The notes below the pieces were generated by a model. The model saw only the letters and a program-made list of their open reading frames with translations. It had not been told where the DNA came from and searched no databases. The translations under genes and the position numbers were made by a program. Below, piece by piece: positions 26,667-55,002 of a stretch of 55,002 nt of DNA. Origin of the DNA: a virus (Duplodnaviria; Caudoviricetes); the IMG/VR virus record IMGVR_UViG_3300011339_001338, positions 1 to 55,002 of that record, one strand, 5' to 3'. Numbering within the stretch: position 1 is the first letter of the stretch; every line of letters starts with the position of its first letter.

Positions 26667-26671
26667 TATTG

Positions 26672-31750: not shown

Positions 31751-33829
31751 TTAAGTACAAATTCTATAAATTCTTTCCGTGTATGGCTCAAAATTCAACA
31801 ATATCTCAGCATTGTTTGGCTCGTATATAATATTACCGTTAGTAAATCCTGGGTAAGTGTTAATTGTTGATAATCCTTCATCTGTTAATGTCCCTATATC
31901 AATTTTTATTAAACCAAAAACATTACCATTAACATTAAGTATATAAAGTTTATTATTAGCTTCATCTATTACCATACTTGTATTTGTTCCACTATAAGGT
32001 GTTAGGTCGACATATGAAATTGCCGAGCCCGGATTATTGTAAACAAACAACCTTCCACCGTCAACCAACAAATACATATATAAGTTAGTTATATCATATA
32101 ATAATTTTTTTCCAAATCCGTTATATCCGCCCGAAGGAACAGTATCTGTACCAACTATATTCTTAGTAGATGGGTCAACATAGAATATAGTATCTCCTGT
32201 GGAAACAACCCAAAATGCGTTATTGAGTCTCGACCATGCAATATCGCCATTTGTAGTGGCGGTTACATCTATTGTGGCGTCTATTAATTGAGTTGAAATA
32301 TTAATTTGTAAATAATCACTAATGTCGGTCAATATACCAAGATATGTATACAATCTATCTACCGCAATTTCAGTAATTGAAATTCCTGCATTGATTGTTG
32401 ACGCTGTCAAATCTGTTAAATTATACAAGTCAACTGATTTACTTGACGAATCACTACCCACATATAAGAGTTCACTAACACCATCATTTGCAAATGTTAA
32501 ACTAGCATAAGTTGCGGGTCCTCCGGACAATGAATTAGGTAAAGTTTCAATATACGAATATGAAGTGTCATAAACTTCAGTATCTCCAGTAGTTACGACA
32601 TATAATAAACCTGTGTTGGCATTGTAATCAAATCTATATACCTTATCTGTAGTATTAAAATACCCGACTTGATAAGGACAAGAAGGTGTTGCACCTGATG
32701 TTGGAGTAGGAGTAGGAGTTGCGGTATTTGTTGGAGTAGGGGTCGGAGTTTCTGATTCAGTTGGTGTTGGGGTATTAGTTGGTGTTTCTGTTGGGGTTGA
32801 TGTAATAGTTTCTGTTGGGGTGTTTGTGGGTGTTTCAGTTAAAGAAGGAGTTAGTGTTACCGTTCCTGATGGAGTATTAGTCGGGGTTTCGCTCGGTGTG
32901 TTGGTAGGGGTCTCAGTATTTGTTGGAGTTACTGTAGGTGTTGGAGTTTCGGTTGTTGTTGGGGTAACACTAGGTGTTACACTACTTGTAGGGGTTTGAG
33001 TGTTGGTTGTCGTAATTGATGGTGTTGGTGTTGTGGTAACAGTAGATGTAGGAGTGTTAGTTGGAGTTAATGAAGGAGGCGGAGTACTAAAAATTATATC
33101 ACTCTCAAAATTTAATATTATGTTTGGAATAGTATTAATTAATTCAACATTACTTAATAAACTTGACTGAGTTAAATTGTCATAATTATAGTCGGAAAAT
33201 ACTATTTGTGTTGTTCCCCTAGTCTCACCTGAGTTTATTGTTACACCTGTCACAATTTCTATGGTAGTTCCCGTAATTACTTCTAAAACATTTGTAAAAT
33301 CGACTCTAATATCTTTGTTGTAACTTTGAGAGCTTGTTAATATATAATCAATGATTAATGAACCTGAGTAATAATACGCCTCTAAAGTTAAACCTCCGAT
33401 ATTGAATGTTTGTTGGAACCCGCAACAAGGCAAATTCAATGAATATACATCCAAGAATGAACTATTATCCGTACTAAATGAATCTAAAATATTGACATAA
33501 AATTTTTCTTGGAGGGGTAGTATAACAACACCGTTTTCAGAAGGTACTGAAATCTGAACTTCATATCTACCAGACTTTATTGTATCTTTATTTGTGAATT
33601 GATAATTTAAATAGTATAAAGTTTTATCATCAAATGGAGATGTTTCAGTTGTAATATAACATTCCTTTGACGCAAATAAAATCTTATCAATTGTTTTATC
33701 GTATAATGAAATATAGAATGAGTAATTTGAATCTAAAAACGAATTCAAATTAAAATCACTTCTCCCATCTTTACATATCTCAACCTTTAGAATAGGAAGA
33801 GTGGCATTTTTTTTAATATAAAATTCCAT
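31751..33829 (-). CDS. Modular virion-type protein: BppU-like N-domain, Ig-like domain, Thr/Pro mucin-like stalk, beta-propeller-like head
   Basis: 692 aa with [21 protein letters not shown], an approximately 135 aa TPT tract, and repeated LY/VYD blades. Confidence 0.6.
32677..33088 (-). repeat. Mucin-like Thr/Pro/Ser coding repeat tract
   Basis: [17 protein letters not shown]...ETPTNTP repeats with degenerate third codon positions. Confidence 0.9.
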
Positions 33830-34197
33830 TATCCTCTTATAAAGTTTTCAATAATGTTTATATAAAGTTTTTCTTTAATTGGAAGAATTAAAGTTCCGTC
33901 ATCATTTATAAATAAAAACTCCCCTTCATACCTACCAACTCTATTAGTGTCTAAAGTGCCGAATTTATAATAAATATAATATTCGGTCTTACTATTTGGT
34001 TCAATAAAAACTTTATTAGTAAAACCTGCTTTTTTATTTAAAATTTTGTAATTACCGTCTATTACATTTTTCATAGAAAAAAAAATGGAAGAATTCTCAA
34101 TTATTGAGTTAAAGTCTTCCATTGAAGATTTTCCATTAAAATCTAATTCCATTTTAAGAATAGGTAGTGTTGAATTTTGTCCGATAAAAAATTCCAT
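33829..34197 (-). CDS. Stand-alone BppU-like domain protein, paralog of the downstream gene's N-terminus
   Basis: [18 protein letters not shown]...[19 protein letters not shown]...[13 protein letters not shown] aligns by eye with [18 protein letters not shown]...[13 protein letters not shown]. Confidence 0.65.
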
Positions 34198-34200
34198 ACC

Positions 34201-34208
34201 TATAAATA
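34201..34208 (-). promoter_or_regulatory. TATTTATA putative late promoter motif
   Basis: Ends 3 nt before ATG 34197. Confidence 0.55.
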
Positions 34209-34213
34209 TGGAA

Positions 34214-35890
34214 TCAACACTCTTTTCTTAAAGAAGCATCATAATGTTCAAACCTATCGTGTTCTGTTGGGGTCATTAGAAGGATTCCTGGTTTTAAATT
34301 TCCTTTAATTGTCTCTTGAAAATTATGTGACATTATAGTCTGCTCAAATGGAGATGCGTATTTGGTTTCTAAATAACATTTATAGTTACCTGATTTAGAA
34401 AATAATACAGGCCAATTACACAAGTATATTTCACCGGTTGCATATGGAACACCTTTATATGATTTAATATTTTTAAAATTTGTTCTCGGAGCTTCAGGGT
34501 CCAATCCTTGGGACGGTAGATTTGGTTTTTCGGGCCAATGAGATTCCCTAAAAACCTGAGGTACATTATACCAACTCCATTGTGTAGAGTTATCTCCATA
34601 GAATTCTGTAAAATTCATTTTTAAAAACCCAAAATCTTCTTTTTTCGAAATGTCTAATACCTTATTATACAGATTATCAATTTTTCTATTAAACCCATTC
34701 TTACAAGTTTTTTCAGGTCCATTATAAAAAAACATATCATCCTCAAAAAAGAAATAATAATCTAATCCTGTGGTATCAAAATGTTCGGCAATAAACTGTC
34801 TACCACCAGTTATACCCAAGTTTTTTTCAGGCCAAATAATTTCAAAATTATTATCCTCTGCAATTTTTTTATAATCATCATCAGTTGTTCTATCAGTCGA
34901 GTTATTCAAAATAAACTTTTTTGGTTTATCCAAAAAATTAACATCATATTCCTGTATAGATTTAACAAGAGTCCTCAATTGATTCGGACTATTAAATGTT
35001 ATCACATAAAGAGCTGTCTTATCAACATCTAAGGAATTTTCTGATTTAGTATTTCTTACTGTTTTAGAAACCAAATTATCATTTTTACAATCCTCAAAAA
35101 ATTTACCAATTAATCCGTTATTTTCAATTTCAAAATATTGAATTAAATCGGAATGCTTATAAGTCATAATTGTGAACACGGATTCTTCCGTACCCATGTA
35201 TCCGTTGTTTAATGTGTCTAATAATAATCCATAATATATTGAATTAGCTTCACTTATTGTATCTTTAGGTCCACCAAAAAAACCACCCCTACAAACCATG
35301 TTAACTTCAGAATTCGAGTATTCACACATTTTTTTATATTCAAATCCATGTATTTCGACTTTACCATCATAAGGAAATGAAATAAAAGAAAATTTATTAA
35401 ATTTATCTTTTATTTTAGATAAAACCATATCATGAGTAAAGTAGCCAATATGTACTGTGTTTGAAATACCCCCATCAATCCATATCAAATGTGTTGAGTT
35501 AAATTTGTCCAAAATTTTTGCATCGTGTAATAAAAACATTTTTGACATTACCAGTGGATTGTACATTTCTAATTTAGATTGTGTTGAATCAACTAACCAT
35601 CCCGATTGATTATACCATTCGGGTTTATTTCTAATAGTTTGAATCAAATCAAAGTAATTATTTTGTTTAAACCAGCTTAAATCTCTTCTTATAAACTGAG
35701 TATTTTTTTCATTTCTATATTTTTTTACATATTCCTCAAGTTCAGAATCTCCAAAAATTATTAAGTCATTGTCCACCCCTAAAAGTTCCGAAAATTTATC
35801 CAAATAATGTTGAAAACTTCTTGACCAACCTTCTTGTAGGGAATCCCTCCCAATGTTCCATAAACCAGTTACTAAAGTTATTGAATTCAT
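34214..35890 (-). CDS. Two-domain glycosyltransferase-like protein: HtrL/YibB-like plus GT2-like (GT-A)
   Basis: N-domain TLVTGLWNIGR...RSFQHYL...SKMFLL...WIDGG...GGFFGG...TEE. C-domain LYVITFNS...ILNNST...NLGITGGR...YFFFEDD. Confidence 0.65.
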   Translation of the reverse strand: MNSITLVTGLWNIGRDSLQEGWSRSFQHYLDKFSELLGVDNDLIIFGDSELEEYVKKYRNEKNTQFIRRDLSWFKQNNYFDLIQTIRNKPEWYNQSGWLVDSTQSKLEMYNPLVMSKMFLLHDAKILDKFNSTHLIWIDGGISNTVHIGYFTHDMVLSKIKDKFNKFSFISFPYDGKVEIHGFEYKKMCEYSNSEVNMVCRGGFFGGPKDTISEANSIYYGLLLDTLNNGYMGTEESVFTIMTYKHSDLIQYFEIENNGLIGKFFEDCKNDNLVSKTVRNTKSENSLDVDKTALYVITFNSPNQLRTLVKSIQEYDVNFLDKPKKFILNNSTDRTTDDDYKKIAEDNNFEIIWPEKNLGITGGRQFIAEHFDTTGLDYYFFFEDDMFFYNGPEKTCKNGFNRKIDNLYNKVLDISKKEDFGFLKMNFTEFYGDNSTQWSWYNVPQVFRESHWPEKPNLPSQGLDPEAPRTNFKNIKSYKGVPYATGEIYLCNWPVLFSKSGNYKCYLETKYASPFEQTIMSHNFQETIKGNLKPGILLMTPTEHDRFEHYDASLRKEC

Positions 35891-35906
35891 TTTGTAGTAA
35901 TTTTAT

Positions 35907-36839
35907 TTAATTTAATATTTCGAGATTATCTAAAAAAGAATACAAGATATCAAATTGACTATTTGGTGTGCAGTTTTTAACAAACCACTCATAAGATTTT
36001 TCAGTCATTTCATTATATTCTTTTGTTTTGTAAAAATCATTAATAAATTTAATTTTTTCGTGAATGATTTCATCAATAGGTTGATTATTCCAAATTTTTG
36101 ACACAATTTCATCATCTATAAATTTAAAATAATGTTCATTCTCAATCAAAGGGTTGTAAAAGTTACAAATCAAATTTTCCCTCAAGTTGACGACCCCAAG
36201 TCCAAACAATTCCAAATCTCTATAGCAAATATTGGCAGCACCATTTAAACTTAAACCAAATTTGCAGTCCGAGAGTTCCTCATAATATTTTTGTTTTTCT
36301 TTAAATTCCTGTCTTTTGGAGTAAATTTCAAACTCATTGTAAGTCTTCAATTTATTCATAATGTTTTCTCTGATTCCGTGGCTCAAACCCGCAAAGTATA
36401 TTTTTTCATTATTTTTTTCAACTTTTTTAAGTTGTGAAATTACGTCATGGTCTGACCAATTTTCTAAATAATATATTGAAGGTTGTGTAAATTCATATTT
36501 CGCAACGTAATCATTTGATAAATTTGATACTGCAGAAAATTTTACAACGTTTAAATTATTTTTTACACAGTACTCAATTGTTGCATTTGCATAGTCGTAC
36601 CAACAATGAATAAACATTTTTTCATTTTTTTTATTCATTATTATAAGATTAAACCAATTAAATGGTGAATCTGAATGATTATTATAGGGGTGACCCAATT
36701 TTTCTGATAAATCAGAAATTGACATGTATTCAAATTTAATTTTTGTTTTTTCCTCTATTTTATAGTGAAAAAATTTATAAAATTCGCTTACATACCAGTT
36801 TTGGTATCCAAAATCATAAGAAATTATATATTCAGACAT
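35907..36839 (-). CDS. Putative GT-B-fold glycosyltransferase
   Basis: IYFAG...R...YYEELSDCKFGLSLNGAANICYRDLELFGLG...PLIENEHY resembles the exostosin/GT1-type C-terminal domain. Confidence 0.55.
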   Translation of the reverse strand: MSEYIISYDFGYQNWYVSEFYKFFHYKIEEKTKIKFEYMSISDLSEKLGHPYNNHSDSPFNWFNLIIMNKKNEKMFIHCWYDYANATIEYCVKNNLNVVKFSAVSNLSNDYVAKYEFTQPSIYYLENWSDHDVISQLKKVEKNNEKIYFAGLSHGIRENIMNKLKTYNEFEIYSKRQEFKEKQKYYEELSDCKFGLSLNGAANICYRDLELFGLGVVNLRENLICNFYNPLIENEHYFKFIDDEIVSKIWNNQPIDEIIHEKIKFINDFYKTKEYNEMTEKSYEWFVKNCTPNSQFDILYSFLDNLEILN

Positions 36840-36859
36840 TCAAAAACACGCTTGAACCT

Positions 36860-37555
36860 TTATTTTTTTATTTTGCAAACCCAAACGACATTTCTAAATT
36901 CCTCCTCAAATAAAGGAATTAAATTATATTTTTTACATGATTCATCAATATCATTATCCTGTATTTCAAGCCAATTCCATATTTTGTTTTCAACTTGATT
37001 TTGAAAATATTGACTGTTTGGGGCATAATCGTGAGCCATGATTACATCACCAATTTTTAGTAAAGGGGAAATGAGATTAAATTCATTTTTTTTATTTCCT
37101 CCATCACATAAGACTAATGTAACACCTTCCCCATTTATAATATTATATAATTCCATTTTTGAGTTTTCATCGGCAAAGTCACCATAGTCGTATGAAAATA
37201 AATTTATTACTCTAGCATCTATATTTATATTAGAAATACGCTGCAAAAGATAGTGAGGAGTTTGTACGTCATAAGTTATAACCTCACTTTCTCCAAGATT
37301 ATTTATATCTAATAAATCTCTCATAATTAAAGTTAAACCTCCGGCAAAGGTACCAATTTCTAAAATTCTTGAGGGTCTAATTTCTTTTATCAGTTTATTA
37401 AATTCATCAATTATATTTGGATTTTGCTCAATTGAAATTCCTTTATAACTAGCATGTGTGACATTACCTTTTGATAAATTTTTGTTGAAGAAGTCATTTT
37501 TATAACAGTCTTCACCTGAACAGCTTAAATTATTTTTTACAATATCAATATTCAT
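36860..37555 (-). CDS. SAM-dependent methyltransferase (CmcI/sugar O-methyltransferase-like)
   Basis: PSRILEIGTFAGG, ITYD, LCDGG and GDVIMAHDY. Confidence 0.75.
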   Translation of the reverse strand: MNIDIVKNNLSCSGEDCYKNDFFNKNLSKGNVTHASYKGISIEQNPNIIDEFNKLIKEIRPSRILEIGTFAGGLTLIMRDLLDINNLGESEVITYDVQTPHYLLQRISNINIDARVINLFSYDYGDFADENSKMELYNIINGEGVTLVLCDGGNKKNEFNLISPLLKIGDVIMAHDYAPNSQYFQNQVENKIWNWLEIQDNDIDESCKKYNLIPLFEEEFRNVVWVCKIKK

Positions 37556-38553
37556 TATTTTATTTTTTCTAAATTTATTTTTTTAAAAGTATGTTCTAAA
37601 CTATTACTTAAAATCGAATTTCTCATAAACCACTCTCGAGCATTTTTACTTACAAATTTCAAATATTCTTTATTGTATTTTACCTTATCCCAAGTTCTAA
37701 TTAAATTTTTCTTAAAATCTTCATATGATATGTAATTAGGATATCCACCATCAGAATAGTCACAATAATGGTAACAATTAATATAATGGTAATTAGGAAT
37801 TAATGGTTCAGGATAAGAAGTTTGGATGAGGGGTCTAATCACAGGTACACCAATACCAAAACATTCAATATCTCTATTACAAATCTCGGTCCCTCCGGGT
37901 AAACTCAAAGCACAAGAATAATTTGATAACTCCTCTAAATACTCGTTGTAGAGTAAATTTTGGTTATTATAATTTTTATCTATGATGACAATATCTTCCC
38001 TATTGATGTTTTCTACCATTTCTTTTCTAAAATCCCACAAATACCCTCTAAAAAATAATGAATTTATTTTTTCATTATTTTCTCTGTTATCATATATTTC
38101 TGTCATTTTATCATAACAACAATCAAAATAAGGACCGTAAAAAAATTGTTGGTAAACATCCTCAATGTTGTCGGGAAACTCTAAGTCTAAATTTGCTTTA
38201 CCTGTATTAACATATGAAAAGTAGTCAAAAAAATTGAACCCTCCGCAATAAAAAAACTGAGCCATTTTTTTTGGTCGCCACCCCAAATGAGTCATAAAAT
38301 GGTATTTATAATTATCAAAAAAAGATAATAAAATATATTTGTTGTTTTCAGGATTTAGTATGGACAGGCTCATGCAACTATGAATTCCCCCCTGACCAAA
38401 TTTTTCATAAGATTTGTCTACTTCAATATCAAAAGTATGTTCAGGATAGGACTCAATTAATTTTTGTCTAAGATTATTAAAAAAACTTGTCACATAAAAT
38501 TTATAACCATCAAGCACAATATCTCTGAATTCGTGTCTTAATATGAATCTCAT
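37555..38553 (-). CDS. Putative GT-B-fold glycosyltransferase (paralog of 35907-36839)
   Basis: LFFRG...R...YLEELSNYSCALSLPGGTEICNRDIECFGIGVPVI...PLIPNYHY...AREWF. Confidence 0.55.
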   Translation of the reverse strand: MRFILRHEFRDIVLDGYKFYVTSFFNNLRQKLIESYPEHTFDIEVDKSYEKFGQGGIHSCMSLSILNPENNKYILLSFFDNYKYHFMTHLGWRPKKMAQFFYCGGFNFFDYFSYVNTGKANLDLEFPDNIEDVYQQFFYGPYFDCCYDKMTEIYDNRENNEKINSLFFRGYLWDFRKEMVENINREDIVIIDKNYNNQNLLYNEYLEELSNYSCALSLPGGTEICNRDIECFGIGVPVIRPLIQTSYPEPLIPNYHYINCYHYCDYSDGGYPNYISYEDFKKNLIRTWDKVKYNKEYLKFVSKNAREWFMRNSILSNSLEHTFKKINLEKIK

Positions 38554-39794
38554 AAATTTCCTGTTATTCTTTCACCCCAACCCTTTGATTTGGAGTATGG
38601 CCATACAACCCAATATTTTGGTTTTGAGGTTGTTTGGAATTCCCTCCAAACTTTACAGTATCCATCAGGGTCATTTTTCATACCTCTAATTTCATTTGGG
38701 TCGGCATCCTTTCTATAAATTGTATTATCATTCTCATCATGGAATGCAACCGCCCAAAAGTCATAATCTTCTTCAGGAACTTGAGTATATCCAATATCAA
38801 TACAATGTTTAAATATGGATGCAAATGATTCCATCCATTCTTCTTCACTTGAGTAATTGTAAGTGTTTGGTGGATATTTTTTATCTAATGTTTCTTGTTG
38901 GACCGCTCTTTTAGAAAAAAGTAACCCTGAGTAGATTTCGTAATCTCTTAGAGTTCTTTCGGGACCAAATCCAAATATACCGTGGTCCATCGGTTCTTCA
39001 TTATCCATACCAAAAAGAGCTCTATTTTTTTTGTGACAATAGTTATTTCTTTCAACCCATTTCTTATCATCATCCCACTGTTTTGTTCTTCCTTTACGAG
39101 TATACTCATGCCAAATAAGAGTTTTGTGAGGATGGAATAAATCATATCCCCAAGTATAAGCTCTTGCCCCAATAGAGATTTCTTCTCCGTGGAAATAATA
39201 ATCAGGGTCATGCTGAACTTCTTTGGCAAATTGACCTAAAGTAAAGCAATAGTGTGCCGAGTAAAATCTTGCAGTTACTGGTTCAGTTAGATTTTGCCAC
39301 CCTGGTATTGTTTCGGGTAAAAAGAATACCGCTCCTTCAGGAATGAATCTATCAAAAGCCATTCGCCATGGCTCTTGAACTCTCGCGCCTGGGTCATTAT
39401 CAGGGTCAAATGATGAAACATAACCCGTCAGAAGTGGTTTTTTATAACCTTTCTTTTGAAGTTGTTTAATCATTTTAATCATCTCCTCATCCCAATTTGG
39501 GGCAAACCTCATATGAGAATCAATTTGAAGGGTATACTCTTCATTGTCATATAGTTGTTGTACCAAATGTCTAGCCCAGCACGCCCCTTTCGATTCCGAA
39601 TAAGGTATATTCAATATTTTAAATCTCTTATCATTATCATACTTAGATAAATCATCAAATTTATCATCAGGGTGAAATTGTCTAGCAATTGCAAATACTA
39701 AATTTTTTGGTTTTTTTGCATTTTCTATTGCTGATTCTATCGTCTTTACCAGCTCTGGGTCTCTATAAGATGCAATTTGAATAAAAATTTTCAT
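38550..39794 (-). CDS. GT60-like UDP-GlcNAc:polypeptide/hydroxyproline GlcNAc-transferase
   Basis: IFIQIASYRDPEL, SKGACWAR, LQIDSHMRF..WD (DxH), FHGEEI...RAYTWGYD and WHEY.R are hallmark motifs of the Gnt1/Gnt2/OGNT family. No signal peptide or TM segment is visible. Confidence 0.8.
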   Translation of the reverse strand: MKIFIQIASYRDPELVKTIESAIENAKKPKNLVFAIARQFHPDDKFDDLSKYDNDKRFKILNIPYSESKGACWARHLVQQLYDNEEYTLQIDSHMRFAPNWDEEMIKMIKQLQKKGYKKPLLTGYVSSFDPDNDPGARVQEPWRMAFDRFIPEGAVFFLPETIPGWQNLTEPVTARFYSAHYCFTLGQFAKEVQHDPDYYFHGEEISIGARAYTWGYDLFHPHKTLIWHEYTRKGRTKQWDDDKKWVERNNYCHKKNRALFGMDNEEPMDHGIFGFGPERTLRDYEIYSGLLFSKRAVQQETLDKKYPPNTYNYSSEEEWMESFASIFKHCIDIGYTQVPEEDYDFWAVAFHDENDNTIYRKDADPNEIRGMKNDPDGYCKVWREFQTTSKPKYWVVWPYSKSKGWGERITGNL

Positions 39795-39860
39795 GAAATT
39801 ATACTAATTTCAAAAATAATAATTTCAAAACTGATTAATCTGAATAGTTTTTACAATAAA

Positions 39861-44591: not shown

Positions 44592-44597
44592 ATAATA

Positions 44598-46766: not shown

Positions 46767-46786
46767 CTATTTTTTATTAATTAAGT

Positions 46787-48715
46787 TTAGCTAGTTGGTG
46801 TTGGAGTTGGTGATGGGGTAACACAATTACAACCTTGTGTTGATATATATGCGGTTGCGCCTACATTTGTAGAAACAACAATAACATTTTTTGCACATAT
46901 ATTTTCAGTTGTAAATTGTGGTACCACTAAGGTTGATACACTATTATTACACCCTGTAAAGGTAAATGTTCCACCTGTCGATGCCCCCCATCCTCCGTAT
47001 AAATTCCAAAAACGACAACAATCCGTGGTTGTTGAGGTTGGAGTATTAGTTGGAGTTAGTGTCAATGTTGAAGTAACTGTTGGTGTTGGACTTGGAGGGA
47101 TATTATTTGTAAAATCTGAAAAACTAAAACCTGATATCCCGCACTCAACACAAGGTATCTGAACTTGTCTTGAAGGTGTTACAGTATGAGTTCTAGTAAT
47201 TGATGGGGTTGGAGTTTTAGTCGGGGTTGTAGTTGTGGTTGGAGTTATGGTCGGGGTTGTAGGTGGTGTTAATGACGGCACAAACCCTAGTGTTACAGAA
47301 GGTGTTGGAGTTGCGGTTTTGGTTGGAGTCATTGTTGGACTAACTGCGGGAACTGGCCTGAAATTAGTATTGATACATTTAATTATTTGTGATGAACCAT
47401 TTACCACTTCATTCAGTGATGAAAATAAAGATGAGTTATATGGATAAGAATTATTAAATGAGTAGATATTACCATCATTACTAAAATCTATTACACAAAT
47501 ATTATTATTATATTGAAAGATACCGTCAGGGTAATTAAATGTGTTTGAAACATCTATATCTACTTGAATTCCTCCATTGTTTAAATAATCATATTGAACT
47601 ATGAATGAGTTCCCATCATTGTCAAATTCGGTAACAATTAAATTATTATTATCTGTTAAAGTCATGTCGCCGGCAACATATCTTCCTTCTTGTATAAAGA
47701 ACATAGTTGTTGGCTGAGCGATATTATTTACTATATTTATTTGGACAATTTCATTAGGTATTCCTGGTACTGAAGTGTAAATTGAGGTTATTAAATTTGT
47801 TCCATTATATACAGCAAGTCCCGTACCATTATTAAATCCAAGAGATATTGTTCTAGAATAGGTTGCACTAAATGGAGAAAACTCAATTAACCATTCTTGT
47901 ATGTAACCATTACCTAATAACCAAAGAGTGTCTAAATCATGTGCAATATCAAGTACAAAGTCAGAAAAATCCCCACCTATAAAATACTCAGTCAACTCAG
48001 TACTTATGTCGGTGATTGGGTTATATGCAAATATTTTACCACCCTTGGTAACATATAAAACATCACAATAATTAACTGTTGGACCAAACTGGGGGGTAAT
48101 AGATACGGTTGGGGTTGGTGTTGGAGTTGATGTGGTTGTTTTTGTAGGAGTATTCGTTAGTGTTTTTGTAGGAGTATTTGTTAGTGTTTTTGTAGGAGTT
48201 GGGGTTGGAGTTCCACAAGAATTATTTACACAAGGTATCCCTTGGGTTGCAATTATTGTTGGTGAACCAGAATATGAACTATATAGTGAGCAGGTTGATA
48301 TTGTACCTAATGGAGGTATTACAGTTGAGAAAAATTTATTATCACAATCGTAATATTGTAAAAACGCAGTTTTAGTTGAATTAGAATTATAAAAACTATA
48401 ACAAAAACAATTACTTGTAGGTGTAGGGGTTGGGGCGTTATAATTTATAGTTTTAGTTGGTGTAGATGTTGGGGTTTTGGTTTGGGTATTTGTTACACTA
48501 GGTGTTGGGGTTAGACAAGGTATTAAGACTTCACAGGTTTCGTTATATTCGGCAAAAAATAAAGTATATGTACCATAATAATAATCTGAACTATAATTGT
48601 AAGGAACTATCACATTTCCAATAACAATAGGTGTTCCACCGCTACAAGGATAGAATGTCAAATATGCAGTTTGCCCGCTATAATTATTTGTGGTGATTTG
48701 GACTACTTGTGGCAT
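46787..48715 (-). CDS. Mucin-like modular protein (start revised to ATG 48715)
   Basis: MPQVVQITTNNYSGQT aligns with paralog N-termini. It has five TPT tracts, two Cys modules and one propeller-like domain. Confidence 0.65.
   Translation of the reverse strand: MPQVVQITTNNYSGQTAYLTFYPCSGGTPIVIGNVIVPYNYSSDYYYGTYTLFFAEYNETCEVLIPCLTPTPSVTNTQTKTPTSTPTKTINYNAPTPTPTSNCFCYSFYNSNSTKTAFLQYYDCDNKFFSTVIPPLGTISTCSLYSSYSGSPTIIATQGIPCVNNSCGTPTPTPTKTLTNTPTKTLTNTPTKTTTSTPTPTPTVSITPQFGPTVNYCDVLYVTKGGKIFAYNPITDISTELTEYFIGGDFSDFVLDIAHDLDTLWLLGNGYIQEWLIEFSPFSATYSRTISLGFNNGTGLAVYNGTNLITSIYTSVPGIPNEIVQINIVNNIAQPTTMFFIQEGRYVAGDMTLTDNNNLIVTEFDNDGNSFIVQYDYLNNGGIQVDIDVSNTFNYPDGIFQYNNNICVIDFSNDGNIYSFNNSYPYNSSLFSSLNEVVNGSSQIIKCINTNFRPVPAVSPTMTPTKTATPTPSVTLGFVPSLTPPTTPTITPTTTTTPTKTPTPSITRTHTVTPSRQVQIPCVECGISGFSFSDFTNNIPPSPTPTVTSTLTLTPTNTPTSTTTDCCRFWNLYGGWGASTGGTFTFTGCNNSVSTLVVPQFTTENICAKNVIVVSTNVGATAYISTQGCNCVTPSPTPTPTS
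48138..48199. repeat. 24-bp tandem repeat, about 2.6 copies
   Basis: GTTTTTGTAGGAGTATT(C/T)GTTAGT units encoding TKTLTNTP. Confidence 0.85.
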
Positions 48716-48725
48716 CTTTTTAAAA

Positions 48726-48732
48726 ATAAATA
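48726..48732 (-). promoter_or_regulatory. TATTTAT putative late promoter motif
   Basis: Upstream of ATG 48715; supports the revised start. Confidence 0.55.
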
Positions 48733-48744
48733 TCAATAAATTTT

Positions 48745-49305
48745 TTATTTGACTATAACACCCTTCAAAAGTTGTCCACCTCCGTCAGTTAAGATATATA
48801 TAATACTAAGTGGTGATAATGGAGTGGTTGTTAGAGTCACACTTGGGGTTGGGGTCGGTGTGGTAGTTGAGGTTAAAGTAACGCTTAGGGTCGGAGTATT
48901 TGTAGATACTGGAGTAACGCTTGGAGTCGGAGTATTTGTAGGCACTGGGGTCACACTTGGAGTCGGGCTGACTATTTCATATTCCACATCACAAACAGGT
49001 ACCTCGATAAAAATGTAGTTAATGTCACACGAAGAAACTGTTGTTGTTAATGCTGACATGTCACAATCAGGGACATTAATTAGATTAGGTACTATGTCTA
49101 TAGGCGGTATATCTATTGTTTTGGTAAAAGTTGTGTCTAACTTAGGTATATAAAAATAGTAAGTTCCTCCTTTTTGGTCTGTGGTATATTCAAATGGGAA
49201 TGTACCAGAACCCAAATCTATTCTTGTAGTTGAGCTATATTTTGAATATTGAACTTTAATAGGTTCACCCAAAAAAGTTTGACTGACAAACCTATAAGTA
49301 ATCAT
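48745..49305 (-). CDS. Small mucin-like protein with shared N-terminal module
   Basis: 186 aa with three CD-x units and 12-aa repeats PTPSVTPV(P/S)TNT. Confidence 0.6.
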   Translation of the reverse strand: MITYRFVSQTFLGEPIKVQYSKYSSTTRIDLGSGTFPFEYTTDQKGGTYYFYIPKLDTTFTKTIDIPPIDIVPNLINVPDCDMSALTTTVSSCDINYIFIEVPVCDVEYEIVSPTPSVTPVPTNTPTPSVTPVSTNTPTLSVTLTSTTTPTPTPSVTLTTTPLSPLSIIYILTDGGGQLLKGVIVK

Positions 49306-49838
49306 GGTATTTCTTGAACAATAATATCATTTATGGTTCCACCAGTATTACAGTTAGGACATCTTGGGTCAAACATTTGGAATTTGGTTTTTAGTATTTC
49401 GAAATTGTGCCAAATTTCAGCAGCGTTTAATGGTTCAACATACATTCTAAATTGAGAAATACCTCCATCGAAAGTACCAGCAAAGTTTGGTTCGATTAAT
49501 ATATTTGTGGTAAGAGCCGATAAACTTGTTCCTGACAATGTTTGGTTTGGCATGACCTCAGGGTCTTGCTGATATGGTGCATCGAATGTGTAAGTAATTG
49601 GACCTGGTGTTGGTGGAGTAAATACAGGTAAAGTTTGTCCTGAAATAATTGAGAAGGAACAGGTATAATTAAATCCTGTAAAATCTAATTCATATGTACC
49701 ATAAAAATAGTTTGTGGAGTAATCGTACGGTATTACTTGAGAGCCAACATTTACAGTCCCACCTGTATCAGGTAAAAATGTAATTACTGCTGTCTGTCCA
49801 CTATAATTATTACTTCCAATCTTTACTGTTGCCGGCAT
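49302..49838 (-). CDS. Shared N-terminal module fused to a LamG-like C-terminal fragment
   Basis: 178 aa; FAGTFDGGISQFRMYVEPLNAAEIWHNF matches the end of a LamG/ConA-like domain. Confidence 0.6.
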   Translation of the reverse strand: MPATVKIGSNNYSGQTAVITFLPDTGGTVNVGSQVIPYDYSTNYFYGTYELDFTGFNYTCSFSIISGQTLPVFTPPTPGPITYTFDAPYQQDPEVMPNQTLSGTSLSALTTNILIEPNFAGTFDGGISQFRMYVEPLNAAEIWHNFEILKTKFQMFDPRCPNCNTGGTINDIIVQEIP

Positions 49839-49853
49839 CCAAAAACTTTATTT

Positions 49854-49861
49854 TATAAATA
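49854..49861 (-). promoter_or_regulatory. TATTTATA putative late promoter motif
   Basis: Upstream of ATG 49838. Confidence 0.55.
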
Positions 49862-50491
49862 TTAAAGTTGTTGGAAATACTTTTGTATTCTTTGACTTAA
49901 TCTGACTCTTGGGTCATTTTCATTTCTACCCATAATACTATATGGAATTAAAAACCCAAAACTAAGAAAAACTCTTCTACTATTAAACTCATTAGTCCAA
50001 TGTCTATAGAGAGAGGCTTCAAAACAATAAAGGTCTTTTTGACTTACTGAAACGTGAGTTTTATCTAAAAAAAGATTGTAGTCCTCTGATAAAACACTAA
50101 CATTACATTTGTAATTAATTAACCCATCTAAAGATGCGTCATAGTGGGGGTCAATTTTTCCACCCTTATTCATATCCACCGCCTGTAAAAACAAATGATT
50201 TTTTGGAAGACCGATTGTTGTTGAAATTCTATCGATTATCTCCATAATAAAATCAGGAAGGGGTTCCTTCCTGACTTCACCAATTGATTGGAAATTTGCA
50301 ATATATTCCGTTTCTTTGGTTTGTGATATATCAAAAATATATGAGTTGCCGTTAAGAGTTTTGGATAATTCAGTTAGGTGGTGATTTGCTTTAAACCCAT
50401 CGTTTTTTAAAGTATCAACCCAAGTTAAAATATCTTTTACCTCTTTGTAACTTATAAAATTTCTTACTATCTTATAATCTTCAGACCCCAT
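49862..50491 (-). CDS. 2OG-Fe(II) dioxygenase
   Basis: N-terminal IVRNFISYKE, HxD motif IDPHYD, distal H in YRHWT, and 2OG-binding R in RRVFLSFGF. Confidence 0.75.
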   Translation of the reverse strand: MGSEDYKIVRNFISYKEVKDILTWVDTLKNDGFKANHHLTELSKTLNGNSYIFDISQTKETEYIANFQSIGEVRKEPLPDFIMEIIDRISTTIGLPKNHLFLQAVDMNKGGKIDPHYDASLDGLINYKCNVSVLSEDYNLFLDKTHVSVSQKDLYCFEASLYRHWTNEFNSRRVFLSFGFLIPYSIMGRNENDPRVRLSQRIQKYFQQL

Positions 50492-50712
50492 TTACTTAAA
50501 AATTCTTTAGGTCCTCCAACCTCCATAATTGAGAGGTTTTGTTTATTCAAAATTTTATCAATCTTATCTTGTTCGCCCGGTATGGTGCAAAAATAATGTG
50601 TTGCAGGTTCTTCACCCGTTGGGGAAACTTTTATAAGAAAAATGTTTTTATTAGTTTCGTTTTCTCTGACTGTTTCTAAGTCTTCTTTTTTTACTAAAAT
50701 GTTTACTCTCAT
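50467..50712 (-). CDS. Small hypothetical protein
   Basis: 81 aa ORF, tightly coupled to its neighbours. Confidence 0.6.
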   Translation of the reverse strand: MRVNILVKKEDLETVRENETNKNIFLIKVSPTGEEPATHYFCTIPGEQDKIDKILNKQNLSIMEVGGPKEFLSKWGLKIIR

Positions 50713-50713
50713 A

Positions 50714-53242
50714 TTATGGGTTAAAAGGTCCGTTTATTGTGTCTGATATATACAAACTTAAAGTATCATAGTCTAAAGTTGTTATTAACGCAAAATTATC
50801 TATAGAATTTGATATTGTAGAATTTGCTGTGGTGTATACTATTGGAGTTTCGGTTAAAGAATCTACTGTTATTACTAAATTTGCCGCTCCCCCAATGGAA
50901 GCTCCGTCGATTGTTAGTTGTTCACCTACTTGATAAAATTTACCTGGAGTGTTAATTACAATCAATGTTACTAAACCTCCAAAAGTCGTAATGTCGAATG
51001 ATGCTCCAGTTCCACTAAGGGTTGTCGATGAAGGAGTTACTCCGACCCAAGTACCATCACTTCCTCCCTTTCCACCAGCACTACTTGTATTTACGACTCC
51101 ATTGTAATATGTGGTAAAATCAATTGCATTTACAACATTATATGTAATGTCATTATTTTGAAAATAATCACCAATAGTATTGTTTGTAAAATTATCTGTT
51201 ATTCTATTAGTATAGAAGTATTCCCCAATATTATTGCTGGTAAAGCTATTACCAATGACATTTCCTCTGTAGGAACCTCCACCAAAACCAAATCCATCTT
51301 GAATATTGTTATTATAAAAATTGTCACCAATTGTATTATAGGTAAATGAACCATATGTTTCATTTGAATCAAACCCCACACCAATATTATTACTTTGGAA
51401 TAGTCCGTCAATAATGTTTAAGAAGAAATTATACTTAATGTTGTTTTCTAAAAAATCACCATAGACGTTGTTTGCAAGAAATTGAGGTCCAATTACGTTT
51501 CTTGAGAAAGTTCCTCCTGTTATCTGGTTCGATTTAAATGTATCGCCAATTCTATTATTAGCAAATTCGTAACCACCAATATCTTCAGATACTCCAAGTA
51601 AATTAGATTCGAAATCTGTTTTTATATCGTTTCCAAGGAATGAATTATAGATTAAGTTAGTATTAAACCCTGAACGTATTACATTTTCTATGAATGCAGA
51701 ATATATGTTATTGTTGTTAAAACCATATCCTATTTCATTGTCACTAAATGTTAAGTTATAAATGTTATTAGCATTAAAGTTTGATGCAATATTATTATTA
51801 ACAAATGATGTTCCACTAAAATTGTTATTGTAAAAAGAAGGTGCAATAATGTTAGAAGTAAATGAAGAATTTATAAAGTTGTTAAAAAATCCTTCTTGTA
51901 TTGTGTTGGTAGTAAAATTACTGTTTATTATAATATTTTCAGTAAAATCACCTTGAATATTATTACCTTCAAAACCACTATCAATAATATTACTAGAAAA
52001 ATTTCTACCAATATCATTATTCATGAAAGTATCATTTGCCAAGGTTAAAAAGTTATAGGAAAATTGAGCCCCAATTCTATTATAATCAAAATCTTGACCG
52101 TCATTATCCCCAATCATATTAGATTGAAACGACTCCCCAATAATATTACCATCCATATCACAATCAATTATATTTCTTGAGAAGTGAGCCCCAACAACAT
52201 TATCGTCAAAATCGTTTGTAATAATATTATATTCAAAATATGGTCCACATTGATTTGAATCCATATCATCGTTAAAGGTGTTACCTACAACATCTCCGGC
52301 AAAATAATTATTTTCATATTGACCACTTAAAAATACATTATTGGAAAGTAAGAAGATGTAATAGTTAATATTATTTCCCAAATAAGTATTAAAATTATCG
52401 TCATTATTGAATGTATAATATTCAGAAAAACCTGTAAAATTGGAACTGGTCACATTACACTGAAATGGGTTCATATGTTGTGGTAGAGAAACTCCTTGGG
52501 AATAAAAGGTGTTTGACACTTCAGATATTGAAGCTCCAGTAACATTCATTTCCGTAGGACTTGTGATTGTCAAAATTTCATAGTATCTAAAAGAAGACAT
52601 TGGGGAAGCTCCGAATGGATAATAAACCCCCAAAATATCCCCCTCAATAAAGTTCGAATCAAATGAGGTATTCACTCCTGTTACTAATCCGGCCAAATCA
52701 ATAGATAATCTTCCACTATAATATTGTTCAGAGAAAAACCCTTCATATCTAATAAACTGAACCGCTCTAAAATCATAATCGGCTCTGTTATTTTTATTGT
52801 CAATTCTTTCAATTATTCTACCTTTTGCAGGACTCGAAGTTACTTCGGTTACATTAAATGATATATCATAACTAATTTTATCTAACGGATATTGTGGTGA
52901 ATACGCTTGTGTTGCCAAGGTATTAGCACTAGTTGCAAAAACCATCAAAGGTTCAGTTGTCCCTGTTTTATAGTTACCTACAGTAATTGGATTACTCTCA
53001 CTGTCATAGTTTGGCTGGTCATAACAAGTTTGGAAATCAGTTATGAGGTAGAACTTACCAGGATTTAAAGTTGACCCTGTATACGCAGAATACAACTCAT
53101 CATAAGTTATTTCCGTGTATGAAGTAATTCCTGAAAACGCAATATGATACGTTTCACCATTCAATTCAACTGGAATTAATGTATCCTCAGTTGGTGTTTC
53201 TAAAAAGGTTAATTGACCTATGGTTTTTCCTGTTAGTGACAT
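50714..53242 (-). CDS. Tail fiber/spike-like beta-solenoid protein
   Basis: 842 aa with an N-terminal KTIGQL, dozens of F-x-x-N-x-I-(G) repeats, and a Gly-rich C-terminal domain GTGASFDIT..GG.VT.I.I..PG..Y..G. Confidence 0.65.
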   Translation of the reverse strand: MSLTGKTIGQLTFLETPTEDTLIPVELNGETYHIAFSGITSYTEITYDELYSAYTGSTLNPGKFYLITDFQTCYDQPNYDSESNPITVGNYKTGTTEPLMVFATSANTLATQAYSPQYPLDKISYDISFNVTEVTSSPAKGRIIERIDNKNNRADYDFRAVQFIRYEGFFSEQYYSGRLSIDLAGLVTGVNTSFDSNFIEGDILGVYYPFGASPMSSFRYYEILTITSPTEMNVTGASISEVSNTFYSQGVSLPQHMNPFQCNVTSSNFTGFSEYYTFNNDDNFNTYLGNNINYYIFLLSNNVFLSGQYENNYFAGDVVGNTFNDDMDSNQCGPYFEYNIITNDFDDNVVGAHFSRNIIDCDMDGNIIGESFQSNMIGDNDGQDFDYNRIGAQFSYNFLTLANDTFMNNDIGRNFSSNIIDSGFEGNNIQGDFTENIIINSNFTTNTIQEGFFNNFINSSFTSNIIAPSFYNNNFSGTSFVNNNIASNFNANNIYNLTFSDNEIGYGFNNNNIYSAFIENVIRSGFNTNLIYNSFLGNDIKTDFESNLLGVSEDIGGYEFANNRIGDTFKSNQITGGTFSRNVIGPQFLANNVYGDFLENNIKYNFFLNIIDGLFQSNNIGVGFDSNETYGSFTYNTIGDNFYNNNIQDGFGFGGGSYRGNVIGNSFTSNNIGEYFYTNRITDNFTNNTIGDYFQNNDITYNVVNAIDFTTYYNGVVNTSSAGGKGGSDGTWVGVTPSSTTLSGTGASFDITTFGGLVTLIVINTPGKFYQVGEQLTIDGASIGGAANLVITVDSLTETPIVYTTANSTISNSIDNFALITTLDYDTLSLYISDTINGPFNP

Positions 53243-53254
53243 GTTTTTTTATTT

Positions 53255-53262
53255 TATAAATA
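53255..53262 (-). promoter_or_regulatory. TATTTATA putative late promoter motif
   Basis: Upstream of ATG 53242. Confidence 0.55.
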
Positions 53263-53283
53263 TCATTAGTTTATTATGTTGTA

Positions 53284-55002
53284 TTAGCAAGCTCCTGAAA
53301 ATGTTAATGGGAACAGGCAATCAAATGCTAGTCCACCACCAGGGCCGGTAAACACGTATGTGTAAGTTCCGTCTGATGAAACAATCCCAACAAAACTAGT
53401 TCTTCCAATATTATCGGTTATTATATCATTGACTTGTATTTGTAAAGTTTCTGAAGTTTCAGTTAATTTCAATTGATTACTATTGACTGCGGTTGAGCCA
53501 TCCCATAATGTTGGGACCACAATTTGTCGAACACAATTTGGTGTTTTAGTTGGGGTGGGTGTTAAACTCGAGGTTGGAGTGTTAGTCGGTGTTTCTGTAT
53601 TAGTTGGAGTAATTGAAGGAGTTTGAGTTGGTGTTTCTGTAACCGAAGGGGTTGGGGTACTCGTTTCGGTTTGAGATGGTGTCATAGTTGGCGTTTCTGT
53701 AATTGTTGGAGTCACCGTAGGTGTTGGTGTTGGTGATTGAGAGGGGACAGGTGAAGGGTTAATGTATTTTAAATATAAGTCATTACCTACTATTATGAAA
53801 TTTAGGTCATCGGTTAAAATTGGGTCCTCGAGCACTAATGGTTCTACAAATTTTAAATAGAAGTTGTTACCCACATCAATGTACCCTATGCTTGGCACAA
53901 TCAATATTGCGTCATCAATAACTTGTTCAGGTGGGGTACTTGAAGGCGTTGGTGTAATTGTCGTAGTGGATGTTAAAGTAGGGGTTACCGTAACCGATGG
54001 GGTTGGGGTAAGTGTTTGTGATGGAGTCGGTGTTGGACCAATAAATTCTGACTCAAAAGTAAAATCTATATTTCCACTCAAAAATTCAGGTTGAGTTGTA
54101 ACATTTTCAAATGAACTTGTTTGATTTAGTATTGAAAAATCTTCATCTAATACTACAAAAGTATTACCACTAACTCCACTTGGGGGTATACTAACAGATG
54201 AATTAATTAATATATCATTACCTGTATTAGTCCCAAGTACGTGAGTAAAATTTACAATAATTTCTTCATCGATAGGAAATTCAGTGGTTAAAATGTAGTC
54301 AATTTGTATCGAACCTGGAGTAACAATTGCAAGTAAACCCAAGCCAATTTCAACTCCATAAGCAATATCACAGGCTGGTTTTCTTTCAAAGGTTAAACTT
54401 TCTCTTAAACCTTGTGTTCCACCACCCCAAGATATATTAAAAGGGACTCCTAATTGTTTTTCTTTTTCAGTATTGAGTCCTCTTGGAATGACCTCCTCAA
54501 ATCCATTTATAACATAAAATAATTTTCCGTTAACATAAATTTTAAGGGCTCCGAGTCTATCTGATTTTTCTATTAACCATCTCTCATTTAAATTAACAAT
54601 TTCTACTTGGTCAGGAGCAGGACTACCTGTATGAGTTACAGGAGGTTCAATTAGATTTACAGTATTATTTGATAAACTATCAACATACTTAAAATCAGTA
54701 ATTAACCCAAGTCCACCCTTATAATACAAATCACAAGTATCAAAATAAGAATTTCTTTCCCAAACTACATCAACTAAAAACCAATGTTCCTCAAGTAAAA
54801 AATCAGGATTTTCAGATGCACAGTAGTCAAATATGTTTGATTCGGAACAATATTCGGTTACAGTATAACCAGTTTGATATGTTATTCCTGTTGTTGGTGT
54901 AACTCCCGTTACAACACAGTCACCTGTTAATTTTAAAACTTTTACACAAATTCCAGGATTTGATGGGTCACCATTTAATCTGACCGAAAAGGCGTTTGAC
55001 AT
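53284..55002 (-). CDS. Modular virion-type protein (probably 5'-truncated by the window): partial LamG-like domain, Ig-like domain, two mucin-like tracts
   Basis: HWFLVDVVW...LKIYVNGKL...NISWGGG, TPT tracts, and an ATG exactly at the window edge. Confidence 0.6.
   Translation of the reverse strand: MSNAFSVRLNGDPSNPGICVKVLKLTGDCVVTGVTPTTGITYQTGYTVTEYCSESNIFDYCASENPDFLLEEHWFLVDVVWERNSYFDTCDLYYKGGLGLITDFKYVDSLSNNTVNLIEPPVTHTGSPAPDQVEIVNLNERWLIEKSDRLGALKIYVNGKLFYVINGFEEVIPRGLNTEKEKQLGVPFNISWGGGTQGLRESLTFERKPACDIAYGVEIGLGLLAIVTPGSIQIDYILTTEFPIDEEIIVNFTHVLGTNTGNDILINSSVSIPPSGVSGNTFVVLDEDFSILNQTSSFENVTTQPEFLSGNIDFTFESEFIGPTPTPSQTLTPTPSVTVTPTLTSTTTITPTPSSTPPEQVIDDAILIVPSIGYIDVGNNFYLKFVEPLVLEDPILTDDLNFIIVGNDLYLKYINPSPVPSQSPTPTPTVTPTITETPTMTPSQTETSTPTPSVTETPTQTPSITPTNTETPTNTPTSSLTPTPTKTPNCVRQIVVPTLWDGSTAVNSNQLKLTETSETLQIQVNDIITDNIGRTSFVGIVSSDGTYTYVFTGPGGGLAFDCLFPLTFSGAC

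Follow-up and report, generated by a model that had tools for sequence, protein, structure and literature searches.

Why would a tailed phage carry an enzyme of the GT60 glycosyltransferase (GT) family, and what would that enzyme glycosylate? The question is raised by IMG/VR record IMGVR_UViG_3300011339_001338, an uncultured viral sequence estimated to be 18% complete, with a G+C content of about 33%. Its whole length of 55,002 bases was analysed and is called the window here. Five co-directional minus-strand genes (34214-39794) are tightly packed, overlapping by 4 and 1 bases or standing 16-20 bases apart; they start with GT60 and end with an HtrL-type protein, and proteins with long Thr/Pro (T/P) tracts are encoded in the same region. 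We consider it fairly probable that these five genes make up a cytoplasmic mucin-type O-glycosylation kit, the acceptors of which would be the T/P tracts of the phage's own modular fibre and decoration proteins. By its gene content the window is a fragment of a jumbo-sized contractile-tailed phage (myovirus), because it encodes a tail sheath, a tail tube, a baseplate hub, an SNF2 helicase and a family-B DNA polymerase (polB), as recognised by Pfam and PHROG profiles.

The five-gene cassette and the Thr/Pro tracts

The five genes are listed in the order of their transcription (aa, amino acids).

38550-39794, minus strand: GT60-family glycosyltransferase, 414 aa (PF11397, E = 1.4e-64; phrog_24687, E = 2.7e-166)
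37555-38553, minus strand: GT-B-fold glycosyltransferase, 332 aa (AlphaFold model, pLDDT 91.2); variable cassette gene
36860-37555, minus strand: CmcI/rhamnosyl-O-methyltransferase-like methyltransferase, 231 aa (PF04989, E = 6.9e-6; PF13578, Methyltransf_24, E = 2.1e-4); variable cassette gene
35907-36839, minus strand: 310-aa paralogue of the 332-aa GT-B protein (BLASTP between the two, E = 5e-10); variable cassette gene
34214-35890, minus strand: two-domain protein of 558 aa, HtrL_YibB at aa 3-252 (PF09612, E = 2.9e-15) and GT2-like at aa 296-388 (PF00535, E = 1.2e-3, weak)

An earlier note on this DNA had described an operon of just this composition (GT60-like, GT-B-like, methyltransferase, GT-B-like and HtrL/GT2-like), and each gene was present where it had been placed, with its family or fold.

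The GT60 protein scored 219.3 bits against PF11397, the cut-off of which is 21, and matched profile positions 98-348 plus an N-terminal stretch. Its DxH motif (D92-S93-H94) was invariant in 18 aligned phage sequences of 44-90% identity. A PDB sequence search with this protein matched no chain. According to one source, GT60 has been reported in prokaryotes and protists only, DxH replaces the DxD of GT-A enzymes, as in GT27, and the two families have polypeptide Ser/Thr O-glycosylation in common (PMC7185993). The 414-aa protein is thus a candidate initiating polypeptide N-acetylhexosamine (HexNAc) transferase, presumably for N-acetylglucosamine (GlcNAc), and is predicted to be soluble.

The characterised protist enzymes (TcOGNT1/2 of Trypanosoma cruzi on mucin Thr, Gnt2/ModB of Dictyostelium, and Gnt1 on Skp1 hydroxyproline) have the same PF11397 domain and the same DxH as the phage enzyme. 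On mucin-like proteins, the product of the T. cruzi enzyme is GlcNAc-alpha-1-O-Thr, the GlcNAc of which is extended by galactose and galactofuranose (PMC9472816). The phage resembles these systems in encoding acceptor-like Thr/Pro repeats nearby, and the cassette of one related phage includes a UDP-galactopyranose mutase. It differs in that its enzyme, predicted to be soluble and without a membrane anchor, would act in the bacterial cytoplasm and is paired with an HtrL/GT2 protein. We know of no protist pathway with a GT60 and HtrL/GT2 pair.

For the 332-aa model, all of the PDB matches among those listed (ranked to 50) were GT-B glycosyltransferases, the best being 7qsg (E = 4e-5), and its neighbours in the Atlas carry PF13524 or PF05686. 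The label 'GT-B-like' is therefore right at the level of the fold. A PDB sequence search with the profile of this family found nothing. The 310-aa and 332-aa proteins share the stretch LSLxGxxxICxRDxExFGxGV. From its modelled fold, the 332-aa protein may be an elongating enzyme, and the family of the 231-aa protein would suit O-methylation of a sugar as a capping step. The 558-aa HtrL/GT2 protein is the conserved partner of GT60 and closes the cassette. The division into initiating, elongating and capping enzymes put forward earlier fits the families found, with the transfer itself still read from family and fold. Pfam searches at E values up to 10 gave only noise for the 310-, 332-, 209-, 122-, 178- and 81-aa proteins of the region. 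None of the 17 proteins of the region, polB and the five enzymes included, had a hydrophobic segment of the membrane type.

Thr/Pro tracts of 27-144 residues were found in exactly four open reading frames (ORFs), that is 4 of the 16 in the region covered by the earlier note (31751-55002) versus 0 of the 17 in positions 1-31654. The claim that at least four proteins bear such tracts therefore stood. The four are candidate acceptors:

31751-33829, minus strand: modular protein of 692 aa with a 144-aa Thr/Pro tract (aa 243-386, about 32672-33103)
46787-48736, minus strand: protein of 649 aa, four Thr/Pro tracts joining small Cys-containing domains
48745-49305, minus strand: protein of 186 aa with a 60-aa Thr/Pro tract
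53284-55002, minus strand: protein of 572 aa with Thr/Pro tracts at aa 321-363 and 413-491; its gene start is the window end

Residues 209-321 of the 572-aa protein resemble residues 134-246 of the 692-aa protein, a common domain just before the tracts in both.

The GT60 module in other phages and in bacteria

We collected 145 GT60 relatives from viral contigs and kept 80 loci with 60-90% identity, to which the locus counts below refer (single loci are given as L and a number). HtrL was present in 59 of them, the 122-aa gene that follows HtrL in the window in 34, the methyltransferase in 22, the 332-aa gene in 14, a 2-oxoglutarate (2OG) oxygenase in 4 and the 310-aa gene in 3. The usual order was one or more T/P proteins, GT60, 0-13 variable genes, HtrL, the 122-aa gene, the 692-aa homologue and polB. 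The 410 cassette ORFs between GT60 and HtrL fell into 111 clusters, and 55 of the 111 cluster representatives had Pfam matches, mostly to sugar enzymes. These comprised glycosyltransferases (GT2, GT10, GT11, GT25, PLOD-GT, GT34, GT61 and GT7), modifying enzymes (CmcI, FkbM and TylF methyltransferases, sulfotransferases, a carbamoyltransferase and acetyl-transferases) and nucleotide-sugar enzymes (DegT, dehydratases and the UDP-galactopyranose mutase mentioned above). No undecaprenyl-phosphate priming transferase, flippase or polymerase was recognised by Pfam among the 111 representatives; one of them had a weak P-loop match to ABC_tran within a PRK-family kinase. Because of the conserved order, the 111 clusters and the lack of membrane segments, the system is a soluble one with two fixed ends (GT60 and HtrL) and a fast-changing middle.

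Two cassette features of single lineages may be mentioned here. Downstream of GT60 in L051-L053 and L069-L071, the cassettes encode a RuBisCO-large-chain-like protein, a phosphoribulokinase/uridine-kinase-family protein, a class II aldolase and split transketolase genes, which could be a pathway for an unusual sugar. Tandem GT60 copies, about 61% and 42% identical to the window enzyme, occur in one phage sublineage (L045-L053, L057, L064 and L076) and also in some bacteria (L108 and L120). The duplicated phage loci had no T/P ORF within 10 kb by the strict rule given below, except L064 (46 aa); L057 had just a 26-aa tract by the loose rule.

The T/P tracts were detected by two rules. The loose rule required T+P+S of at least 70% and P of at least 4 per 20 residues, and it also flagged the PPPSEE-type tails of VgrG proteins; the strict rule, with T of at least 5 and P of at least 4, was used for recounts of tracts of at least 40 aa. 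Counted by position from GT60, T/P ORFs were concentrated just upstream, with 28/77 at -1 (36%), 26/72 at -2 and 8/63 at -3, and made up 0-6% at positions -4 to -12. None of the 66 ORFs at +1 was of this kind, and a second peak of 14-21% was seen at +8 to +10, behind the cassette; the overall rate around GT60 was 119/1367. The strict rule found tracts of at least 40 aa in 58 of the 80 loci. After GT60 was clustered at 90% identity (44 clusters), such a tract lay within 10 kb in 29 of the 43 clusters evaluated and within the two upstream genes in 20 of 42. Homologues of the 572-aa protein stand directly upstream of GT60 in many relatives (28 of the 80 loci), and those of the 692-aa protein come after the module, with tracts of up to about 813 aa. 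Homologues of the 122-aa protein come after HtrL, and some bear a T/P tail of their own. The longest flagged stretches, both by the loose rule, were about 2023 aa of a 2574-aa ORF downstream of HtrL in L033 and 865 aa of a 2764-aa ORF upstream of GT60 in L012.

In four loci the module was relocated from its usual site beside polB. GT60, the cassette and HtrL had moved as a unit in these, and the 122-aa gene and the 692-aa homologue had moved along wherever a contig end did not truncate the locus, namely in three. Three of the four relocated modules were flanked by T/P proteins. Over whole records, a TPTPTP DNA pattern gave 26-102 matches against 1-8 for reversed-pattern controls in 7/7 GT60-positive records. 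The same pattern had 0 matches in 3/3 GT60-negative large phages (PAU, S-PM2 and a 636-kb uncultured phage), a set picked by convenience and too small for statistics.

Among cultured phages, the Xanthomonas jumbo phage XacN1, Xoo-sp13 and the Stenotrophomonas phages CM1 and RAS14 have GT60 homologues with 45-47% identity (45% in CM1 and RAS14); the XacN1 one, ORF334, is 47% identical to the window enzyme. XacN1 is of special interest, since its virions contain at least two Schiff-stained glycoproteins, which its authors suggested to be made by phage GTs (PMC5852040). In XacN1 an HtrL homologue, 41% identical over its full length, closes a three-gene cassette, and the T/P pattern had 102 matches versus 8 for the control genome-wide. 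The cassette itself is different, with a carbamoyltransferase and two unknowns, and in the sections of that paper seen, neither GT60, T/P acceptors nor the stained bands were assigned.

A profile scan of one genome per prokaryote species yielded 58 GT60 loci. HtrL adjoins GT60 in at least 17 of them, and 14 hold a T/P tract of at least 40 aa by the strict rule. Some of this DNA is crAss-like (L113, L114 and L144) and lies inside, or is binned with, bacterial assemblies. In L113 (2307-15867), GT60 stands between muzzle-type proteins (muzzle-protein C-terminal domain, 60.5 bits) that have T/P tracts of 45-315 aa, followed by a 1087-aa Gly_transf_sug/Caps_synth protein. In Bacteroidota and Verrucomicrobiota, small T/P proteins adjoin GT60. 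Seven such proteins begin with a leader (RR-x-x-L/I and a hydrophobic stretch), continue with a long T/P tract and finish in a short C-terminal domain; HtrL is present in six of the seven loci, and L108 comes from an isolate genome, with the same make-up of GT60, carbamoyltransferase and HtrL as XacN1. Their positions are:

L108, 8941-9729: RR-leader T/P protein
L131, 8645-9625: RR-leader T/P protein
L101, 7997-9751: RR-leader T/P protein
L121, 11411-12115: RR-leader T/P protein
L094, 8504-9649: RR-leader T/P protein
L098, 8675-9556: RR-leader T/P protein
L093, 19-330: RR-leader T/P protein

The leaders are twin-arginine-like (for example LNRRLALRELFLGSS and TRRDFIRKG), and some of the proteins end like sorting domains of the type IX secretion system. 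If these proteins were glycosylated first and then exported by the twin-arginine (Tat) pathway, this would agree with a GT60 enzyme that works in the cytoplasm.

In Burkholderiales (Achromobacter, Paraburkholderia, Trinickia, Dyella and others), GT60 lies inside clusters of the type VI secretion system (T6SS), together with TssF, TssG, TagF, TssM and RHS genes. The VgrG proteins of these loci (L136, 15049-17520; also L120, L128, L130, L134, L138 and L140-L143) all end in Pro-rich repeats with Thr or Ser (10/10). Five tails are of the (TP)n type and the rest are PPPSEE, PPTE, EEPPxT or SDEEPAA. This suggests that the VgrG spike tails may be glycosylated. As a control, tracts of at least 40 aa were found in 0/354 ORFs of 20 stretches (400 kb) from five of these bacterial genomes, versus 7/77 in the GT60 loci of the same genomes; the comparison shows just that such tracts are rare in these five, because the genomes were chosen after the adjacency had been seen. 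The association of GT60 with T/P-rich ORFs, expected in the earlier note for related phages, was thus seen in jumbo phages, crAss-like DNA, bacterial chromosomes and T6SS clusters. Acceptor-like proteins with long Thr/Ser/Pro tracts are therefore co-encoded with the enzymes, in four proteins of the window, with positional enrichment in relatives and with recurrence elsewhere.

The cellular GT60 genes closest to that of the window (64-68% identity; L091, L093, L094, L098 and L099) were on contigs that are assigned to Saprospiraceae and that, at about 34% G+C, resemble the window in composition. Saprospiraceae may be a lead for the host or for gene exchange; these short contigs may also be mis-binned phage DNA.

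Fibre-like neighbours and the source phage

Around the cassette and the T/P genes, the region encodes the following proteins.

33829-34197, minus strand: protein of 122 aa that corresponds, as a domain standing alone, to the N-terminus of the 692-aa protein (40% identity to its aa 1-118)
39861-46766, minus strand: two large proteins of 1576 and 722 aa between GT60 and the upstream T/P proteins; no Pfam or PHROG match
49302-49838, minus strand: protein of 178 aa with a shared N-terminal module; C-terminus like a virion structural protein (phrog_8510, E = 2.1e-4)
49862-50491, minus strand: 2OG-Fe(II) oxygenase-fold protein (Foldseek) of 209 aa, with an invariant HxD...H...R motif
50714-53242, minus strand: repeat protein of 842 aa with tail-fibre-like ends (tblastn)

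The N-terminal module of roughly 65 aa in the 649-aa protein is common to the 178-aa protein (52% identity), which also shares the N-terminal module of the 1576-aa protein. A homologue of the latter in L007 has a 96-aa T/P tract. Residues 46-167 of the 842-aa protein matched a 'tail fiber protein' of Clostridium phage phiCT453A (tblastn, E = 1e-12), and residues 730-819 matched one of S-PM2 (tblastn, E = 4e-7). The 1576-aa and 722-aa proteins are probably fibre-like, and the shared modules look like those of a fibre set with common attachment modules. A tblastn search against cultured phages gave no match for the 1576-aa protein or for the N-terminal 240 aa of the 692-aa protein, and the virion role of these two therefore stays inferred. 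In a 98%-complete relative, other T/P proteins adjoin the gene of a collagen-like tail fibre or of the major head protein, or have a weak match to a Hoc-like head decoration family. Together, these comparisons partly support the assignment of the T/P proteins to the virion.

All long ORFs from 55002 down to 28874 are on the minus strand. The cassette sits between polB and the fibre-like genes, and sheath, tube and baseplate genes are in the same window; the GT genes are thus within or beside a structural block, as in virion glycosylation operons of the mycobacteriophage type. Megablast of the whole region against cultured phages gave no match, so no near-identical cultured phage was found, and a tRNA scan of the window found none. 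A gene for an Fe/Mn superoxide dismutase (26669-27379; PF02777, E = 1.4e-40; PF00081, E = 1.6e-21) lies between the SNF2 helicase gene and a head-tail adaptor-like gene.

Possible acceptors and what the system would do

How well does own-fibre glycosylation stand up? Several observations weigh against it. The earlier note had the operon flanked by T/P genes on both sides. This holds downstream, with one small gene between, but upstream the nearest T/P protein starts about 9 kb from GT60, beyond two large tract-free proteins. Seventeen of the 80 loci have no T/P ORF within 10 kb, and two near-complete relatives have their T/P clusters at a distance of at least 70 kb from GT60. Among 40 polB-anchored loci with at least 9 kb upstream, 17 had both GT60 and T/P proteins, 18 only T/P proteins, one only GT60 and four neither. 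We had expected the T/P proteins to vanish where GT60 is absent, and this failed in those 18 loci, which have T/P proteins without GT60 in the interval; when five such records were followed up, GT60 was present elsewhere on the record in four, and the fifth was 52% complete. The adjacency of GT60 and T/P proteins is thus frequent, not obligatory. Secreted and structural proteins commonly have T/P linkers, and shared synteny accounts for much of the phage signal. Virion location by homology applies to the neighbouring 842-aa and 178-aa proteins only, not to the four T/P proteins themselves. For XacN1, the legend of Suppl. Fig. S4 does not say which proteins the Schiff bands are (PMC5852040). 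We found no characterised prokaryotic or viral GT60 in the literature. The fold matches of the 332-aa protein include both DNA and protein O-glucosyltransferases (T4 alpha-glucosyltransferase and POGLUT1/2), as well as the chlorovirus xylosyltransferase A075L, and therefore the fold does not name the acceptor. On balance, the earlier proposal that the phage glycosylates its own mucin-like proteins is favoured by the genomic association, the apparent solubility of the enzymes and the XacN1 glycoproteins, and it is weakened by the looseness of the adjacency and by the oxygenase, which is not conserved.

Known viral systems offer a different acceptor. In mycobacteriophages, phage-encoded GT and methyltransferase genes reportedly lie near the structural genes, with the glycans decorating the virion, and we know of no GT60 in that system. 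PBCV-1, a eukaryotic virus, has atypical N-linked glycans on its major capsid protein, with no GT60 and no mucin-like tracts; it resembles the phage in that its glycosylation machinery is virus-encoded, soluble and cytoplasmic, and its A075L is the xylosyltransferase named above. The mycobacteriophage glycans are reported from the C-termini of the capsid and tail-tube subunits (PMC12619734 citing Freeman et al. 2023), a placement unlike the long internal mucin-like tracts considered here. The kit may likewise glycosylate other phage proteins, such as the capsid or tail tube, leaving the T/P tracts as unmodified flexible linkers in the same block. The cassette is in a long co-directional block of structural-type genes, so that its neighbourhood with T/P genes could reflect module order, and the adjacency fails in many relatives. 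We nevertheless regard this explanation as unlikely: the pairing of GT60 with T/P proteins recurs without phage capsid genes, in the chromosomal RR-leader loci and beside VgrG-(TP)n in the T6SS, the module moves together with its T/P neighbours, and Thr in mucin-like repeats is the acceptor of characterised GT60 enzymes (PMC9472816). The paper on moraphages describes four core GT groups and, in the portion seen, does not tie them to T/P tracts (PMC12619734). Slightly less likely still is that the cassette remodels envelope glycans of the host (O-antigen or capsule) during infection and blocks the adsorption of other phages. Cassette content is polymorphic like an O-antigen locus, HtrL/YibB is named after a gene of the lipopolysaccharide (LPS) core cluster of Escherichia coli, and the Pfam description of GT25 is that of a family for LPS biosynthesis. 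O-antigen diversification was indeed proposed by Iyer et al. for the polymorphic GT clusters of (jumbo) cyanophages (PMC7824862). However, the five enzymes lack membrane segments, the 111 cassette representatives include no priming transferase, flippase, polymerase or ABC exporter family apart from the one weak ABC_tran match, and all acceptors of GT60 known to date are polypeptides. The bacterial homologues examined adjoin T/P proteins, with wider surroundings scanned by Pfam in five loci.

The remaining two explanations concern a modified base and a modified proline. Soluble phage GTs often glycosylate DNA, and these enzymes might be thought to do so on hydroxymethylated phage bases, evading restriction. 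Besides the match of the 332-aa fold to T4 alpha-glucosyltransferase, the GT2 domain of the 558-aa protein has a weak PHROG match to beta-glucosyl-hydroxymethylcytosine glucosyltransferase (E = 3e-4). DNA-glycosylating GTs adjoin a C5 methyltransferase (C5-MT) with 5mYOX, or ThyS-like hydroxymethylases (bioRxiv 10.1101/2023.12.21.572611), and the window has no base-hydroxymethylating enzyme of either kind (ThyA-like, or C5-MT with 5mYOX). Two relatives, 98% and 100% complete, lack PF00303 (Tet_JBP and C5-MT were not searched separately in these), and in the three records with PF00303 it is distant from GT60. The bacterial homologues are in T6SS and surface-protein loci, and the cassettes hold methyl-, sulfo-, carbamoyl- and fucosyltransferases, a repertoire that to our knowledge goes beyond known DNA glycans. 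DNA glycosylation is therefore very unlikely. Action on DNA or host LPS had been named in the earlier note as what would break its claim, and the hallmarks of DNA-glycosylation and O-antigen systems were not found here. As for proline, the 2OG oxygenase could hydroxylate prolines of the tracts and GT60 could then add GlcNAc to hydroxyproline, as PhyA and then Gnt1 do on Skp1. A 2OG-oxygenase-fold protein does stand among the T/P genes, the tracts are about one-third proline, and PF11397 was, by its Pfam description, built around the Skp1 hydroxyproline GlcNAc transferase. The residues H116, D118, H164, R172/173 and S177 are invariant in the 209-aa family, which counts 1925 proteins at E values up to 1e-3, most at 64-79% identity and with no Pfam domain. 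The Foldseek matches of its model (pLDDT 62.7, pTM 0.65, of modest confidence) were solely 2OG oxygenases, with AlkB-type nucleic-acid demethylases first and prolyl hydroxylases next, among them an algal prolyl 4-hydroxylase bound to (Ser-Pro)5 and PHD2; its subfamily is thus ambiguous, and a PDB sequence search gave one chance match (E = 0.065). The dioxygenase noticed earlier among the T/P genes is thus borne out in fold and motif, but it is not a conserved member of the system and does not travel with GT60: its gene is within 10 kb of GT60 in just 4/80 loci. Searches of five near-complete relatives that are GT60-positive and T/P-rich did not find it, nor did those of Xoo-sp13 and of three bacterial genomes that have GT60 and T/P loci. 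No co-occurrence of GT60 with a prolyl 4-hydroxylase of the Skp1 type was thus seen. Given this lack of linkage to GT60, and a fold that does not point to prolyl hydroxylases in particular, the hydroxyproline route is not supported as a general mechanism, and we hold it to be improbable here.

Under glycosylation of the phage's own T/P tracts, the pathway would run as follows. The soluble GT60 would use host UDP-GlcNAc and put the first HexNAc on Thr (or Ser) in the disordered tracts of newly made structural proteins, as its family suggests. The conserved HtrL/GT2 protein, constantly paired with GT60, would add the next sugar or sugars. The lineage-specific cassette would then extend and cap the glycan, which here, judged from folds and families, would be done by the two GT-B paralogues and the CmcI-type O-methyltransferase. 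The product would be bottle-brush linkers on virion fibres, which the earlier note had proposed might serve as stiff stalks or for shielding, and the rapid swapping of cassette genes among close relatives would give each phage a glycan type of its own.

A wider reading is more tentative, and we think it somewhat less likely than even. GT60 and its usual partner HtrL might be the core of a widespread, undescribed cytoplasmic mucin-type O-glycosylation of prokaryotes and viruses, which would coat T/P tracts of parts that are assembled in the cytoplasm and exposed outside: the fibres and decoration proteins of jumbo and crAss-like phages, VgrG tails and small Tat-exported surface proteins. With the swappable cassette, virions would then have glycan 'serotypes' evolving at the pace of O-antigens.

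Just a few cases of protein glycosylation of phage particles are known. In our literature search, which left most subscription journals outside, no paper linked GT60/PF11397 to phages or described phage-encoded mucin-type glycosylation. GT60, characterised solely in protists as far as we found, is the fixed head of a hypervariable glycan cassette in a large and abundant group of environmental jumbo phages, and its likely acceptors are encoded beside the phage cassette. Virion glycosylation by a protist-type initiating enzyme on mucin-like acceptors would be new, and as a whole we judge this to be rather more probable than not. If it is true, the fibres of many aquatic phages are covered by mucin-like glycan brushes, which would bear on adsorption, protease resistance, and recognition by grazers and host defences, as well as on the reading of virion proteomes and cryo-EM maps. 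The bacterial counterparts, the VgrG tails and the RR-leader T/P proteins, would then extend cytoplasmic O-glycosylation to secretion machines.

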